From: an uncultured archaeon
Lineage (GTDB): Archaea > Asgardarchaeota > Hermodarchaeia > Hermodarchaeales > Hermodarchaeaceae
Assembly (NCBI GenBank): GCA_964347045.1
Contig: CAYFXC010000024.1
Location: 1-27,849, forward strand
Direction of reading: 5' to 3'
Length of the DNA: 27,849 nucleotides
The position numbers were made by a program, and so were the translations under genes. Each line of letters begins with the position of its first letter. Positions within the stretch are counted from its first letter, which is position 1. Below the pieces are notes generated by a model. It searched no databases. It was not told the origin of the DNA and saw nothing but the letters and a program-made list of their open reading frames with translations. Positions 15,627 to 19,370 of this stretch are shown here, piece by piece.

Positions 15627-16376
15627 CTATAATGTTTCCTTTTTTAGAATCTTAATTTCTGCTCGACCACGAGTTAGATTGTTGAGGGCATCAATAAGCT
15701 CACCCCGGAGCCCAGCGGGAACTTCAACGATAGCGATCCACGAGCCATCTTTTTGCCATTCGTCTTTTGCAATATGACCTTGGCGTTCAACAATTCCGTA
15801 TGCTTTGGGAGCAAAGTCAGAAGGAATCTTTATTGCGATTTGTTGAAGTTCCATACGAATGGGAATTATTGGTTGCAGTGCTTTGACAACGTCTCGTGCT
15901 TGTTCTTCAGCTGTCTGAGTGGAGTCGATGACCACATGAGCTTCATCCATAGCCGATTCAATTCGAGCGGGAGGATGTGGTAGCCCAGTTTTTGGATTAA
16001 TTGAGTTACGAACAATGAGATCAATCACTTGCCGCCGGCGCTTATCTACCATCTCACGGCGTTGTTCTGTTGTAAGCTGAAGAGACCCCTTTTCAAGAAT
16101 TATTCGGGCGATTTCAAGCTCATCAGATGTTCCAAAAGCGCCTTCTAGATTTTCAGAAGGAGCCTTCCTACTTCGCAATGCATCCTCGAAAATTGTTTCG
16201 CCCCGAAGAACTTCACGGAGTTCGACTTCTTCACCCTGCTTGAAACTCCACGCAAGTTTAGGGTCTACAATAACTTCGAATCGATGTCCATGTGTGTCTA
16301 GCCTAGCTAAAGCGGCATCACCCAAATCGACACGTTTGTCGCCCCGTATTCCACCCATTCCTGACATAATTGTCAC
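15627..16376 (-). CDS. sdo1: Ribosome maturation protein SBDS/Sdo1
   Basis: RFEV.VDP, LQLTTEQRR, NPKT..PHPP.RIE.AM and WQKDGSW motifs. Confidence 0.96.
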   Translation of the reverse strand: MTIMSGMGGIRGDKRVDLGDAALARLDTHGHRFEVIVDPKLAWSFKQGEEVELREVLRGETIFEDALRSRKAPSENLEGAFGTSDELEIARIILEKGSLQLTTEQRREMVDKRRRQVIDLIVRNSINPKTGLPHPPARIESAMDEAHVVIDSTQTAEEQARDVVKALQPIIPIRMELQQIAIKIPSDFAPKAYGIVERQGHIAKDEWQKDGSWIAIVEVPAGLRGELIDALNNLTRGRAEIKILKKETL

Positions 16377-16387
16377 CTAATCACGAA

Positions 16388-17110
16388 TTACGAAGAGTCT
16401 AATATTTGTTGGATAGTCTTTTTGTCTACTTGTTCGAATTTCTTATCAACTGTTGTTATTTTTGCAGCCACAATTCCTTCAGGGTGAAGAGGTGTAGAGG
16501 CAGTTTCTTTGTGAATTCGAATTGCTAGATTTAAGGCTTCATCGACTTTTAGTAAAGGAGAATATTCCTTTTCCAACACGGTATTCATTTGGTTAGCGCC
16601 CATACCGACAGCATGGGCTTTGTAGCTCCAAAACCCGCCTATGGGAGTCGTTAGATAAAGTTGGGGAGTAGAGTCAACACCGATTATGAGAAAAGAAACG
16701 CCATAAGGTCGGGTTCCTCCCTGCTGGGTGTAGGATTGAATGTGATCACTGAGTTTCTTACTAAGCGTTTTTACTGAAATGGACTCATCGAATGTGAGAC
16801 GGTTAATTTGCGCTAGCTCTCGCGCATAGCGAACGAGTGAACGGGCATCACCGGATAATCCGGCAATTGCGATGCCGATGGATTCATCAATTGTAAATAT
16901 TTTGTCATTATGGTTGGGTTCTTGGAGGGAATGTTTTCTTAGTGCGGCAGTTAAAATCACACCATCTGAGCAACGAATACCCAAAATTGGAGTACCTTTT
17001 CGAACCGCCTCATTGGCGTATTCTACCTGAAATAGGCGTCCCTCAGGACTAAATGTAGTCAAGGCAATATCATAGTCTTGGGTGTTACTGAACAACGAGG
17101 GGTCCTCCAT
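16388..17110 (-). CDS. psmA: 20S proteasome alpha subunit
   Basis: YD..LTTFSPEGRLFQVEYA.EAV, AGLSGDAR and YTQ.GG.RPYGVS motifs. The true start may be TTG 17095 (MFSNTQDY), with GGAGG upstream. Confidence 0.96.
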   Translation of the reverse strand: MEDPSLFSNTQDYDIALTTFSPEGRLFQVEYANEAVRKGTPILGIRCSDGVILTAALRKHSLQEPNHNDKIFTIDESIGIAIAGLSGDARSLVRYARELAQINRLTFDESISVKTLSKKLSDHIQSYTQQGGTRPYGVSFLIIGVDSTPQLYLTTPIGGFWSYKAHAVGMGANQMNTVLEKEYSPLLKVDEALNLAIRIHKETASTPLHPEGIVAAKITTVDKKFEQVDKKTIQQILDSS

Positions 17111-17243
17111 TAACGCCTAATAAGAAGGGAGTTGTGTGAAAGCCCTCTTACTTTTCGTTGGTCTTGTAGGTTTGCCGATTAGGAATAGCACCTTTAAAAT
17201 CTTGTTATTGACAGAATCCAATTTTGCAGACTATGACTCTGGC

Positions 17244-17636
17244 TTAATCTTGGGCTTGATGAAGATAGTAGATGACGCCGATGCAAAGAAGCCCTGTTAG
17301 GAGCGCGTGAAGCCAGCTGAATCCAATGAACGCAATAACGATAACAATGATTAAGAAAATGATTAGCTCAAACCAACCGGCGGTTTCCCCGTAATATTCT
17401 CGAAGGTTGCCGAAGAGCACGACTAGCCCAATGAATGCTAGTACGAGGAGTAAAATCGCTATCACGCCCGTAACTACAGGACCAATAAAGTCAAGAAAGA
17501 CTCCAATGGGATCCAAGCGCGAGATCATTAATGCCATAAGAATGCTAAAGAAGGCGATAGCTGCTGTACTAATGATCATACTGCGACGCATGAATTGTCT
17601 ATCTCGAGACCTATCTTTGGACATCGCTCGTAGCAA
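17244..17636 (-). CDS. Small four-TM membrane protein of unknown function
   Basis: Four hydrophobic segments and a basic N-terminus; probable ATG at 17624 with GAGGT upstream. Confidence 0.75.
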   Translation of the reverse strand: MLRAMSKDRSRDRQFMRRSMIISTAAIAFFSILMALMISRLDPIGVFLDFIGPVVTGVIAILLLVLAFIGLVVLFGNLREYYGETAGWFELIIFLIIVIVIAFIGFSWLHALLTGLLCIGVIYYLHQAQD

Positions 17637-17711
17637 CCTCTTGTCATGCCGCTTGAGATGCGAAAACTCAAAAGGTGAGGAGCTTTTAAGTCTTTGGCTG
17701 TGGGTTCACGT

Positions 17712-18149
17712 ATGACTTCGCCCCGCGTCGCTCGAATACAGTTGACATCGTTGCACCGACGACAATTATATGGAATTCGTCGACGGGCGATGCCCAATGA
17801 GGGGTGTGCAATACTTCTTGGAACTTATAGCAAAGATGGTTTAGTCGCTCGAGTCGTACGCGTCGCTGAAACCGAAAACATAGCCCAATCGAGCGCGGCT
17901 TTTGAGATTGATGCAGAACACCAATATTGTATCCTCACTGCAGCAGCAGAGGAGGGGCTGGAACAAGTCGGGATTTATCATTCTCATCCAACGTCTCCGG
18001 AACCATCAGGCAGTGATTTGGAATTTATGAAATACAATCCCTGCGTTTGGGTTATCGATGGTAAACGAAATAATCGGTTTCGAATGAGAGCTTTTCAGCT
18101 GTGGAAAGGATTTCTAATTTCAGTTGAAATTCTTACAGTACCACCGTAA
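17712..18149 (+). CDS. JAB1/MPN/Mov34 (JAMM) metalloprotease
   Basis: NEGCAILLG (catalytic Glu) and YHSHPTSPEPSGSD (HxH-x7-S-xx-D). ATG 17712 preferred over TTG 17694. Confidence 0.92.
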   Translation: MTSPRVARIQLTSLHRRQLYGIRRRAMPNEGCAILLGTYSKDGLVARVVRVAETENIAQSSAAFEIDAEHQYCILTAAAEEGLEQVGIYHSHPTSPEPSGSDLEFMKYNPCVWVIDGKRNNRFRMRAFQLWKGFLISVEILTVPP

Positions 18150-18158
18150 AAAGAAGAG
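18148..18158 (-). terminator. Pyrimidine/U-rich terminator-like tract after the C/D sRNA
   Basis: Minus-strand CTCTTCTTTTT immediately 3' of the sRNA terminal stem. Confidence 0.45.
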
Positions 18159-18161
18159 GCG

Positions 18162-18234
18162 GGGGCTCTCGGCTCGTCGCGAGATCGTCATAGCACAAGG
18201 CTCAGTTTGGAGCGGCGTGGCTTCACTGAACCCC
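18162..18234 (-). ncRNA. Box C/D 2'-O-methylation guide sRNA (dual guide)
   Basis: 5'-GGGGUUC A [GUGAAGC, box C] CACGCCGCUCCAAA [CUGA, D'] GC CUUGU GC U [AUGACGA, C'] UCUCGCGACGAG [CCGA, D] GAGCCCC-3'. It has a 7-bp terminal stem, two k-turns with 3-nt bulges (AGU, UAU), and 14- and 12-nt guides complementary to conserved 23S rRNA motifs. Confidence 0.85.
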
Positions 18235-18324
18235 GGAGACTCTGTTAGCAAGGCGAGTTTTATCTGTTTTGGCACATGAAGTAGAGCTCCTAAAGAAACT
18301 GAATAGTTAGATTGATCAGATATA

Positions 18325-18681
18325 CTATCGGTATTTGCGGACTCGGATTACTCCTCGGGCTTCGATATCAGGTAGATGCGTTAGTGCTTTTCGAAGTGTA
18401 CCACTTATTCCAACAACATGAAAAAGAAGGGGGTTCGAATCCATCTGTGTAATTGTTGCTAAGGCAGCTCGGAGCGGGCGAACCTCCGTGTGTTGGCAAC
18501 GAATAATGGCACTCTTTTGTTTAGGATGATATGATATTAGCCAAAAACCAATTCGGCTGACTCCCATCTCTCCATATAATTCTTGCAACTGCTGCCAGAT
18601 AGCATTTCGGAAGTTGGATTCAGAAGGGAGTTTCTTGGAAGTGTGAACCCGAATTGCGAGATATCGTTGACGAGAACGCAT
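18325..18681 (-). CDS. rnp2: RNase P protein component 2 (Pop5/Rpp14)
   Basis: RQRYL, LYGEMG, IIRC and VVGISGTLRKA motifs. Confidence 0.95.
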   Translation of the reverse strand: MRSRQRYLAIRVHTSKKLPSESNFRNAIWQQLQELYGEMGVSRIGFWLISYHPKQKSAIIRCQHTEVRPLRAALATITQMDSNPLLFHVVGISGTLRKALTHLPDIEARGVIRVRKYR

Positions 18682-19370
18682 TAGCAGGTTGTCCTCCGTG
18701 ATTGTGCTGATAGGTGAGATTCTCTGTGAACAGATATTTGCGACACAAGTTTCGTCGGTTCAAGATTCATCGCATTCTTGGCAAAATCCTCAGGAACCGA
18801 GGCAAGGTAGCTTAAAGCTTCTAAATCTTTGGGAGCGCGTAGCTCACAAGGATTGGCAGCGCCTGAGGTTAAAATCAAGGAGCAGTTAGCTCGCACCAAA
18901 TGATTCAGGGCAGATCGCATGACCCGCATCAATCGAGAACGAATTGATCCAGTAAGTGTAAGGAGCTGGTGAAGGCATACTTCGACGGGCTTGTTGTGGT
19001 TCGCCATTGCACGGGCTACTTGTGAATCTATTACGGTAAAATCATCGATATCTCTAAGCATGATCATCTGTACAGTTGGAATCTCGGCTGCGGTAAGCCA
19101 AATAGGTTTAGAGCGTCCGTGAATGACAATAAGGTCGGCCAATTTTAGTTGCTTATTCACATGGAATCGGAGTCGTCCAGCACTTCGAGGTGAAATGGTT
19201 AATCGATGAATTATTACCAGGGGCTTGTGCATATTTTCTATCGTAAACGGTTTGGGAGAATCAATGGCTAGCCCAACGAATCCTAATTTGGTTGCGATTT
19301 TTTGAAGTGTTGTGAACTCCCTTTCGTTGTTTTGTGGGTTAAAACGAACATGGAGATCATATGCACACAT
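18681..19370 (-). CDS. rnp3: RNase P protein component 3 (Rpp30)
   Basis: YDLHV, LGF and LTSGA...ELRAP.DL motifs; operon position. Confidence 0.92.
   Translation of the reverse strand: MCAYDLHVRFNPQNNEREFTTLQKIATKLGFVGLAIDSPKPFTIENMHKPLVIIHRLTISPRSAGRLRFHVNKQLKLADLIVIHGRSKPIWLTAAEIPTVQMIMLRDIDDFTVIDSQVARAMANHNKPVEVCLHQLLTLTGSIRSRLMRVMRSALNHLVRANCSLILTSGAANPCELRAPKDLEALSYLASVPEDFAKNAMNLEPTKLVSQISVHRESHLSAQSRRTTC

Follow-up and report, generated by a model that had tools for sequence, protein, structure and literature searches.

The described enzymes most similar to the one considered here are the JAMM1 desampylases of Haloferax volcanii (HvJAMM1) and Pyrococcus furiosus (PfJAMM1, PDB 5LD9/5LDA), which are stand-alone, minimal MPN+ domains of about 130–150 amino acids. 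The reference JAMM motif is E...H-x-H-x(7)-S-x-x-D. The MPN+ fold and its catalytic chemistry are also found in Rpn11 and CsRpn11, the deubiquitinases of the proteasome lid and of Caldiarchaeum, respectively. The genomic setting is the archaeal exosome–proteasome–RNase P superoperon, reportedly described by Koonin, Wolf and Aravind in 2001, in an account not known to include either of the two genes presented below. Outside Asgard archaea, rnp2 and psmA are usually adjacent. The locus bears on how ubiquitin-like (Ubl) tagging, the proteasome and membrane machineries connect in Asgard archaea. The window analysed here (the whole stretch of DNA, 27,849 nucleotides) comes from a Hermodarchaeota-like genome, in which the interval between Pop5 (rnp2) and psmA, at 17244–18149, holds two genuine genes, referred to as JAMM and TM4.

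A divergent gene pair in the exosome–proteasome superoperon

A single run of minus-strand genes in the window encodes L15e, a PF01877 protein, Rpp30, Pop5, psmA, SBDS, Rrp4, Rrp41, Rrp42, L37ae, Pcc1 and prefoldin beta. The co-linear L15e, RNase P, psmA, SBDS and Rrp4/41/42 genes, as assigned with Pfam, correspond to the archaeal superoperon, and their order is the same in the family loci. JAMM is the sole plus-strand gene between 10636 and 21522 (prefoldin beta to L15e), and its position on the opposite strand means that it is not co-transcribed with the other genes of the run. The layout proposed in the first-pass annotation, with two genes between rnp2 and psmA, the membrane protein in the same orientation as psmA, and a divergent gap of less than 90 nt, was borne out (Table 1). 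The gap lies between two conserved start codons, the ATG of JAMM at 17712, kept in 15/15 aligned family loci and in the protein alignment, and that of TM4 at 17624, also kept in 15/15 aligned loci. Gene callers at times place the start of TM4 at M12 (17591) or M16. An Rfam search over 17100–18340 gave no match at E ≤ 1. No RNA run was listed as covering 16300–18700, and a single DNA run, perhaps the source sample, contains the stretch. The genome encodes a second proteasome alpha paralogue elsewhere (C3:153738-154424).

Table 1. Features of the Pop5–psmA interval and its two flanking genes (positions in the window)
Feature	Position	Strand	Description
psmA, proteasome alpha subunit (superoperon copy)	16388..17110	-	Pfam Proteasome 1.4e-47, plus Proteasome_A_N
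TM4 ORF	17244-17624/17636	-	126 aa; four-helix integral membrane protein; heads the TM4-psmA-SBDS-Rrp4 run
Divergent JAMM/TM4 spacer	17625..17711		87 nt; putative bidirectional promoter
JAMM ORF	17694/17712-18149	+	145 aa; alternative TTG start at 17694
Pop5/Rpp14 (rnp2), RNase P subunit	18325..18681	-	Pfam RNase_P_Rpp14 2.5e-23; tail to tail with JAMM

The TM4|JAMM arrangement is present in 18/18 family loci (the genome itself and 17 of its 18 sampled relatives), which is more than chance would give, and the divergent pair was found in 31 of the 79 sampled Asgard genomes that have both genes, in five of 13 families (gene coordinates compared by eye). The genes are adjacent in 18/18 (f1), 4/4 (f14), 5/5 (f15), 3/3 (f20) and 1/1 (f12) cases, although genomes within one family are kin, so that high within-family counts overstate independence. 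The pairing is old and conserved, and is not a strain-specific insertion, a possibility raised at first pass. JAMM and TM4 lie apart in the other 48 of the 79 genomes, including those of the Thorarchaeota-like family f6 (on different contigs in 26/26 sampled genomes), family f9 (15/15) and six further families, and coupling is thus not obligatory. In the Thor loci read, Pop5 adjoins JAMM and psmA adjoins TM4; overall, of the 80 JAMM loci read, 40 have the gene next to Pop5. Each gene was also found where the other was not: TM4 without this JAMM in f4 (TM4 in 13/14 genomes, JAMM in 0/14), f5 and two of the three f12 genomes, and JAMM without TM4 in f18 (6/6) and f19 (5/7). The accessible parts of the literature on Asgard archaea, JAMM proteins and the proteasome do not mention this locus.

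The spacer between the two genes has a 44-nt core (17657–17700) that is nearly invariant in 15/15 family loci and contains two opposed TATA-like boxes, CTTTTAAG on the plus strand and CTTTTGAG on the minus strand. The flanking proteins diverge more (54–77% identity for JAMM and 56–84% for TM4 in the family loci), and stronger conservation in a spacer than in the adjoining coding sequences is difficult to account for unless the two genes share regulation. The block is unique in the genome, with up to 8 mismatches allowed, and is confined to family f1 among all the loci compared. An RNA hairpin formed by the spacer palindrome was considered and rejected: a TT-to-AA change in two loci has no compensating change in the opposite arm, and a DNA element is thus favoured.

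The nearly invariant core and its opposed boxes suggest that the synthesis of JAMM and that of the TM4 operon are probably coupled, and the best reading of these sequences is that a tag-removing enzyme would be co-regulated with the TM4-psmA operon. JAMM and TM4, which heads the TM4-psmA-SBDS-exosome run, would be transcribed away from each other, and the putative promoter activity of the spacer would probably link the production of a deconjugase to that of a proteasome alpha and RNA-processing operon. The explanation preferred here, tentatively and at a little under an even chance, is that the locus represents an ancient, conserved Asgard extension of the exosome/proteasome/RNase P superoperon, in which a JAMM1-type deconjugase is co-regulated with the TM4-psmA operon and TM4 is a small membrane adaptor. 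The maintenance of the pair in five families argues for this explanation, particularly in f15, in which the two genes stay together outside the superoperon, away from both psmA and Pop5. Against it, a gene for an Lrp/AsnC regulator lies directly upstream of JAMM and co-oriented with it in Thor- and Baldr-like loci (together with an HD-domain gene in Thor), but this partner is absent at the present locus and the genome has no close copy of it; the unusual motif spacing of JAMM (see below) also counts against it.

The neighbourhood could instead have been inherited without functional coupling, with JAMM serving the cell as its general desampylase, or regenerating MoaD-type carriers, and lying on the opposite strand through an accident of history, and with TM4 being a translation- or translocon-related protein that sits in the superoperon independently of JAMM and the proteasome. 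This is possible, if rather unlikely; it would fit the separation of the two genes in most genomes holding both and the status of JAMM as the only opposite-strand gene of the run. It fits poorly with the persistence of the pair in five families, including f15, in which the rest of the superoperon is not close by, and with the conservation of the spacer above that of the coding sequence on both sides.

Family, fold and probable substrates of JAMM

The JAMM protein matches the Pfam family Prok-JAB (PF14464) with 69.6 bits (curated cut-off 25, E 2.6e-19), against 23.5 bits for PF01398, the Rpn11/CSN5-type JAB family. The motif had been called intact at first pass, and its catalytic residues (E30, H90, H92, S99 and D102) are indeed invariant in 16/16 relatives in the protein alignment. 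Between His and Ser, 15 of 16 sequences have x6, whereas aligned relatives in the PDB have x7, one residue longer. The AF2 model (pLDDT 93.7) matched 263 PDB chains at E ≤ 0.001, with JAMM1, Rpn11 and BRCC36 on top, identifying an MPN fold. Its best match was 5lda_A, PfJAMM1 with SAMP2 (E 6.3e-13, TM 0.79/0.87, 30% identity), as against E 1.6e-9 and 20% identity for Rpn11 chains, and the sequence itself matches the PfJAMM1 chains 5lda/5ld9 at 2e-11. The best NCBIfam model is the desampylase NF041370, with 51.6 bits, below the 130-bit equivalog cut-off, so that orthology to the JAMM1 desampylases is not established; the genome's other two JAMM genes reach 18.8 and 16.2 bits with this model. An Rpn11-like identity, one of the options named at first pass, is disfavoured by the Pfam scores and by PfJAMM1 being the best fold match. 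Judged from its sequence and predicted structure, JAMM is a stand-alone, intact metalloprotease of the JAMM1/desampylase type, a putative zinc isopeptidase, neither Rpn11-like nor Mec-like. In the loci read, relatives from Nitrososphaera and from other archaea outside the Asgard group lack neighbouring genes for the proteasome, Ubls or E1, a further point against the preferred explanation. They adjoin genes for a cupredoxin, an AspRS/AsnRS-type synthetase, UbiA and others, which give no functional clue.

The genome offers several potential tags. It has five ThiS-family (SAMP/MoaD-like) open reading frames, all ending in GG, and a single ubiquitin, also GG-ended, encoded in a RING-Ub-E2-E1 cluster on C8 that contains no JAMM gene of its own. 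Five ThiF-family matches lie above the cut-off, two of which are adjacent halves on C9. The Rpn11-like JAMM of this genome is a separate gene (C7:52042-52368, 57.8 bits with PF01398), the product of which has a C-terminal membrane helix; membrane-bound JAMM enzymes therefore exist in this organism. Since the Ubl proteins are all made in the mature, GG-ended form, deconjugation is a more plausible role for JAMM than precursor trimming. JAMM would most likely cut Gly-Gly-linked tags (the five SAMP/MoaD-like proteins and the ubiquitin being the probable substrates) off modified proteins, permitting the recycling of the tags, and where the ubiquitin operon of a lineage encodes no deubiquitinase, JAMM is a candidate for the general removal of tags.

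The alternative that JAMM is a Mec+/CysO-type enzyme, trimming C-terminal extensions from sulfur-carrier proteins, is highly improbable, and the genomic context of JAMM shows no sign of the Mec type considered at first pass. JAMM does belong to the same broad Prok-JAB family, and three of the five ThiS-like genes have metabolic neighbours, some of them aldehyde:ferredoxin-oxidoreductase-like. However, none of the six Ubl open reading frames carries a C-terminal extension beyond its GG end, no sulfur-carrier, cysM or E1 gene adjoins JAMM in any locus read, and the best matches of JAMM are the desampylase model and PfJAMM1.

The TM4 membrane protein

TM4 has no Pfam or NCBIfam family match, consistent with its first description as an unrecognised protein, and its 42 close homologues are all unnamed or labelled 'hypothetical'. 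A search of 1.84 billion proteins yielded 77 cluster representatives, and TM4 appears, so far, to be restricted to Asgard-type sequences; the gene is single-copy and present in 104 of the 151 Asgard genomes sampled. The AF2 model (pLDDT 92.5) consists of four long helices and one short helix. R75, G83, W84 and Y120 are the same in all 16 sequences compared, and the conserved residues (R14, R75/E76, G83-W84, Y120), located in the N-tail, in the loop joining helix 2 to helix 3 and at the end of helix 4, should face the cytoplasm, as predicted by the positive-inside rule. TM4 is probably a small membrane adaptor holding a soluble partner. Used as a profile against the PDB, the TM4 alignment retrieved just a designed helical protein and an unnamed membrane protein (E 0.058 and 0.35), and a search of the ESM Atlas only unnamed archaeal clusters, with scores ≤ 0.86. 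DUF2070 was rejected as a relative: its weak matches, in 8 of 73 TM4 members, fit membrane-helix composition, and a full DUF2070 gene is present elsewhere in the genome (377 bits).

The slot occupied by TM4 is nearly always the same, upstream of psmA in the superoperon or beside SBDS where psmA is missing. The next gene after TM4 is psmA in 16 of 18 loci of its own family and in 12 of the 40 TM4-centred loci read in other families, and at least one superoperon gene lies within 4 kb of TM4 in 34 of these 40. SBDS is beside TM4, with psmA absent there, at 10 of the 40, and one genome of the same genus has this arrangement too. Further neighbours are the translation genes for S6e, TFIIB, L37e-LSm, prefoldin beta and an NFACT/Rqc2-like protein. 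The retention of TM4 by SBDS without psmA, and these translation genes, are again in keeping with a neighbourhood inherited without coupling. Taken with the separation of the two genes throughout f6 and the position of the f15 pair, the SBDS loci also weaken the specific link to the proteasome that the first-pass annotation had proposed.

TM4 might tether JAMM, the 20S proteasome or both to the membrane for the quality control of membrane proteins, although this appears quite improbable. The frequent position of TM4 directly upstream of psmA, its pairing with JAMM in five families, the predicted cytoplasmic exposure of its conserved residues and the membrane anchor of the genome's Rpn11-like JAMM would all be consistent with such a tether. 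TM4 is, however, kept at loci without psmA, the f15 pair is located away from psmA, and the C-terminus of TM4 has no hydrophobic-Tyr-X tail, the motif used by proteasome activators to dock on the alpha ring. Physical contact between TM4 and JAMM or the 20S proteasome is a speculative element of any such scheme.

A Foldseek search with the TM4 model, suggested at first pass, produced one outstanding match, but one unaccompanied by sequence support: chain N of 9n9j/9ygy, with a probability of 0.97 and TM 0.55/0.58. VIA-align against 9ygy_N gave a Z of 12.7 (rmsd 2.1 Å over 105 of 117 residues; runner-up Z 8.6), a value within the range, below about 13, that helical bundles may reach by chance according to the tool's own note, and an identity of 13%. 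From its length (117 residues) and the text of the structure paper, chain N is inferred to be KCP2 (KRTCAP2) of the eukaryotic OST-A translocon, the coordinates of which are a fitted AlphaFold model in that structure. DAD1, with 113 residues at full length, is shorter than chain N.

TM4 could then be the archaeal counterpart of KCP2, a small four-helix subunit of the OST-A/Sec61 translocon, at the ribosome–translocon junction, with JAMM as a bystander or peripheral partner; for example, TM4 might bind a DC2/Ost3-like protein by its N-terminal tail, held in a cytosolic cleft. Such a role, which would account for the position of TM4 among ribosome and RNA-processing genes, is improbable on present evidence. 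Beyond the single outstanding match, the genome has a short, TM-only open reading frame of the OST3/OST6 family (DC2-like; C1:76988-77317, 33.5 bits), but OST3/OST6 matches occur in 136 of the 151 Asgard genomes, families lacking TM4 included, and so near-universal a distribution says nothing for or against the idea. The identity of chain N, the fitted coordinates, the chance range of the Z score and the low sequence identity count against it, as does the KCP2 model PF09775 (Keratin_assoc), which had no match in a six-frame search of the genome at E ≤ 10 and is absent from the families listed for TM4 members (best 25 of 30 for 16 members; best 25 of 93 for 73 members). The TM4 loci read show no link to glycosylation genes, and a literature search found no paper joining Asgard archaea to KCP2, or Asgard archaea to oligosaccharyltransferase and DC2.

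A broader proposal combines these ideas, and we consider it a long shot: TM4 would be an unrecognised Asgard counterpart of KCP2, forming a cytoplasm-facing docking platform at the ribosome–membrane junction, and in several Asgard classes JAMM would be co-regulated with TM4, and perhaps docked on it, removing Ubl tags from proteins associated with the ribosome or the membrane, next to psmA. If true, the Asgard repertoire would gain a new eukaryote-like membrane component and a deconjugation step close to the membrane. KCP2 is, to our knowledge, treated as eukaryote-specific. If the resemblance reflected common descent, a translocon accessory subunit would go back to archaea.

Comparison with described systems

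The locus offers a compact, highly conserved putative bidirectional control region that is directly testable, and a widespread, well-defined and uncharacterised membrane protein family fixed in a highly conserved archaeal gene array. Like KCP2, and at about the same size, TM4 forms a small bundle of four membrane helices, but it has no detectable sequence similarity to KCP2, and the comparison is with an inferred chain and predicted coordinates. The proximity of JAMM to a proteasome gene invites analogy with Rpn11 and CsRpn11, with which it would share fold and chemistry, but its family and fold scores with these enzymes are weaker and its gene lies outside the ubiquitin operon. With the JAMM1 desampylases, JAMM shares the E...HxH...SxxD zinc site, a minimal stand-alone domain, the best sequence, family and fold matches, and a setting in which GG-ended SAMP-like proteins and E1-like enzymes are encoded in the same genome; it differs in its shorter motif spacing and its sub-threshold score with the desampylase model, and its activity is a prediction. 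It also differs from HvJAMM1 and PfJAMM1 in its fixed place beside Pop5 and TM4 in the superoperon, and we know of no description of such a position for either enzyme. The superoperon itself shares the gene set of that reportedly described in 2001, from L15e through prefoldin beta, but here JAMM and TM4 are additional genes between Pop5 and psmA, with JAMM on the opposite strand.

Gene array and divergent spacer

The archaeal exosome/proteasome/RNase P superoperon, reportedly known since the work of Koonin and colleagues in 2001, is present in the window, where its classical genes extend from 20452 to 11731 within a longer minus-strand run (21522–10636). The first-pass annotation described two genes between Pop5 (rnp2) and psmA, a JAMM isopeptidase gene and a divergent gene for a four-helix membrane protein (TM4). 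This layout was borne out, and no gene of the run other than JAMM is on the plus strand. The ATG start codons of both genes are kept in 15/15 aligned family loci, defining a spacer of 87 nt.

Genes of the superoperon run and other features of the window
Feature	Position	Strand	Remark
L15e	superoperon run	-	
PF01877 RNA-binding protein	superoperon run	-	
RNase P subunit Rpp30	superoperon run	-	
RNase P subunit Pop5	18325-18681	-	
JAMM	17712-18149	+	between Pop5 and psmA
TM4	17244-17624	-	126 codons, membrane protein, between Pop5 and psmA
Proteasome alpha (psmA)	16388-17110	-	
SBDS, Rrp4, Rrp41, Rrp42	superoperon run	-	
L37ae, Pcc1, prefoldin beta	superoperon run	-	
ORF, 186 aa	12352-12912	-	no Pfam match at E≤1e-5; inside superoperon, between L37ae and Pcc1
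ORF, 736 aa	1423-3633	-	no Pfam match at E≤1e-5
ORF, 221 aa	714-1379	+	no Pfam match at E≤1e-5
Conserved spacer block, 44 nt	17657-17700		

The 44-nt block of the spacer is nearly unchanged across 15 loci of the family, which represent two genera, whereas the flanking proteins vary more (54–77% identity for JAMM, 56–84% for TM4). It occurs once in the genome when up to 8 mismatches are allowed, and its 27-nt core (up to 5 mismatches) was found only in loci of the window's own family among all the fetched loci searched. Its plus strand carries CTTTTAAG, about 22–29 nt before the JAMM ATG, and its minus strand CTTTTGAG; these may be opposed TATA-like boxes, forming a putative bidirectional archaeal promoter. 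The arms of the spacer can also pair as a hairpin, but two loci carry a TT-to-AA change that the other arm does not compensate, which favours a DNA element. The spacer matched no Rfam family.

The genome has two proteasome alpha genes. The second lies outside the superoperon (C3:153738-154424), and its product is 53% identical to the superoperon psmA of another family (f12), versus 47% for the superoperon copy in the window.

Enzyme type and candidate substrates

JAMM scores 69.6 bits against Pfam Prok-JAB and only 23.5 bits against the eukaryote-type JAB model, and by sequence it best matches, in the PDB, a Prok-JAB structure (2kcq) and JAMM1 of Pyrococcus (5ld9/5lda, about 2e-11). The top NCBIfam model is that of the haloarchaeal desampylase, at 51.6 bits and thus below the equivalog cut-off of 130 bits; the genome's other two JAMM genes score 18.8 and 16.2 bits with this model. 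The structure model, built from 16 relatives (pLDDT 93.7), superposes most closely on PfJAMM1 with SAMP2 (E 6.3e-13, TM 0.79/0.87, 30% identity), with Rpn11 chains ranking behind (E 1.6e-9, 20% identity). Glu30, His90, His92, Ser99 and Asp102 are unchanged in 16/16 sequences, and solved relatives have one more residue in the loop from the second His to the Ser. Given these family scores, the PfJAMM1 fold match and the invariant catalytic residues, JAMM is predicted to be an intact JAMM1-type isopeptidase rather than an Rpn11 homologue, as far as sequence and fold can settle the point.

The genome encodes five ThiS/MoaD-family proteins and one ubiquitin, the latter within a RING-Ub-E2-E1 cluster adjoining ESCRT genes, and all six proteins end in Gly-Gly. 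A Mec-type role, in which JAMM would trim C-terminal extensions of sulfur carriers, is therefore highly improbable, as nothing is left that needs trimming. Deconjugation would be the plausible task for the enzyme. The ubiquitin cluster (C8:39717-45977) consists of ESCRT-like genes followed by RING finger, ubiquitin (ending in GG), E2 and E1 genes, with functions assigned by eye except for the Pfam matches for ubiquitin and ThiF; it contains neither a JAMM gene nor any deubiquitinase gene. A second JAMM gene (196 aa; locus C5:24326-27625), with a helicase-like ORF on one side and an E1-like gene of the ThiF family on the other, has weak NCBIfam matches to the anti-phage cap2_3 model, and its locus may form a module of its own for Ubl conjugation or of defence type. 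The third (locus C7:50569-53838) is Rpn11-like (PF01398, 57.8 bits), with a hydrophobic C-terminal membrane helix, and adjoins what appears by eye to be a Roadblock/LC7-like ORF; a protein of the same architecture is encoded at L088:5988-6689, in a Hodarchaeota-labelled locus, near a JAMM1-type ORF.

The TM4 family and its possible resemblance to KCP2

No Pfam or NCBIfam family matched TM4. The 42 close homologues found by word-indexed search are all unnamed or "hypothetical", only 77 of 1.84 billion cluster representatives matched its profile (lengths 51–196 aa), and the ESM Atlas listed unnamed archaeal clusters, with no named relative. The AlphaFold model (pLDDT 92.5, pTM 0.84) has four long helices and a short one. 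R75, G83, W84 and Y120 are unchanged in 16 diverse members, R14 nearly so, and E76 and Y120 are more than 90% conserved in an alignment of 72 representatives and the window protein. As the N-terminal tail is basic, a cytoplasmic orientation is expected for all the conserved residues.

TM4 could be a KCP2-like translocon protein. A Foldseek search against the PDB gave a single notable match, 9n9j_N (probability 0.97, E 0.37), and a Foldseek-independent search ranked that chain highest (as 9ygy_N; Z 12.7, rmsd 2.1 Å, 105/117 residues), with a runner-up at Z 8.6. In the paper on this entry (PMC12804085), a small four-helix bundle is assigned to KCP2, positioned from an AlphaFold model, and has a cytosolic cleft holding the DC2 N-terminus; chain N is probably KCP2. 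Sequence lends no support, PF09775 having no match in the genome at E≤10. We consider the KCP2-like translocon reading of TM4 unlikely. As OST3/OST6-family ORFs are near-universal (136/151 Asgard genomes), they provide no phyletic test, and the likeness is a lead rather than a classification. One short ORF of the genome (C1:76988-77317, open frame 144 aa) is DC2-like in size, since its match to the OST3/OST6 family covers just the membrane portion (169-278 of 294, 33.5 bits).

Conservation of the arrangement and its interpretation

Single-protein searches of 41 genomes (the window's own and 40 relatives) detected JAMM in 25 and TM4 in 24, including, for each protein, 17/18 relatives from the window's family. 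The two genes are neighbouring and divergent in 18/18 family loci (own genome included), and the arrangement thus extends beyond one strain. JAMM is followed by Pop5 in 16/18 loci, the other two ending first, and TM4 by psmA in 16/18, one ending first and one (L013) truly lacking psmA before SBDS. The congener concerned (L013/L070) has no superoperon psmA copy at all.

Among the best 80 JAMM-related loci (contigs from one genome per species), nine, of Hermod-type, have TM4-JAMM-Pop5, with psmA too in 7/9. In 26, mostly Thorarchaeota-titled, an HD-domain gene, an Lrp/AsnC gene and JAMM converge on Pop5-Rpp30-PF01877-L15e; four more have JAMM beside Pop5, and one (Baldrarchaeota-titled) has psmA-TM4 divergent from Lrp-JAMM, then Pop5. 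The TM4-JAMM pair occurs without other query genes in four (Sif-, Borr-, Hodarchaeota- or only Promethearchaeota-titled), and JAMM without any query gene in 36, mostly Nitrososphaera- or Thermoproteota-titled; the neighbours in nine of these 36 gave no functional clue. Broken arrays keep JAMM with Pop5 or TM4, never with psmA alone, and a service of JAMM specific to the proteasome is not supported. In array-breaking lineages, TM4 stays with psmA or SBDS.

In Thor- and Baldr-like genomes (L076-L146; L142, L167, L168), JAMM lies directly downstream of a co-oriented Lrp/AsnC-type regulator gene, accompanied in Thor-like loci by the HD-domain gene; the JAMM and Pop5 matches of the Thor loci mostly have only about 10–60 nt between them. 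Baldr-like loci place the Lrp gene divergently from TM4-psmA, as is usual for a regulator and its target. The window's genome has no close copy of either the Lrp or the HD gene. In a Borrarchaeota-labelled locus, TM4 and JAMM are separated by an 80-aa ORF (L077:3588-3830) that carries two CxxC pairs, resembles a zinc ribbon by eye and has no Pfam match. In three loci of this kind, TM4 is followed by a histone-deacetylase-family gene.

The TM4 profile matched 104/151 evenly sampled Asgard genomes (44/52 genera), nearly always in one copy. Forty TM4-centred stretches were taken from 39 genomes outside the window's family, and 34 of them have one or more superoperon genes within 4 kb; TM4 is followed directly by psmA in 12 and has SBDS as a neighbour, with psmA absent, in 10. 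Rpp30/Pop5 lie near TM4 in 5/5 loci of family f4 and 5/6 of f9, and further neighbours include S6e, TFIIB, L37e-LSm, prefoldin beta and an NFACT/Rqc2-like gene. From these loci, TM4 is an old, phylum-wide member of the superoperon array, with a position independent of psmA. In f9 and f23 (L160, L161, L179), the NFACT/Rqc2-like gene, which belongs to a ribosome quality control family, is no more than about 1 kb from TM4. A role of TM4 as a membrane quality-control tether is quite unlikely.

The JAMM profile (E≤1e-10) matched 103 of the same 151 genomes, and 79 have both genes. Comparison of the coordinate tables by eye placed the two on one contig within about 1.1 kb in 31/79: f1, the window's family, 18/18, f14 4/4 (with an Lrp gene in between), f15 5/5, f20 3/3 and f12 1/1. 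Since genomes of one family are related to each other, pairing is independently supported by five families rather than by 31 genomes. The genes are not together in 48/79 (Thorarchaeota-like f6 0/26, f9 0/15, f13 0/2, five families 0/1 each), and the weak f9 matches may belong to another JAMM subfamily. The arrangement is conserved family-wide and, in part, phylum-wide. Our tentative reading of the divergent pair, held with a little less than even confidence, is a co-regulated JAMM1-type deconjugase plus membrane adaptor, in which the pair would serve a joint function through shared regulation and perhaps docking; an inherited neighbourhood is a somewhat less likely explanation.

Literature searches yielded no description of the TM4 family, its fixed array slot, the recurrent TM4-JAMM pairing or the conserved spacer, and these four would be new relative to what was found in print; TM4 may appear as an unnamed orthologous group in the supplementary tables of comparative papers on Asgard archaea. 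JAMM itself adds one more member to an enzyme kind already known.
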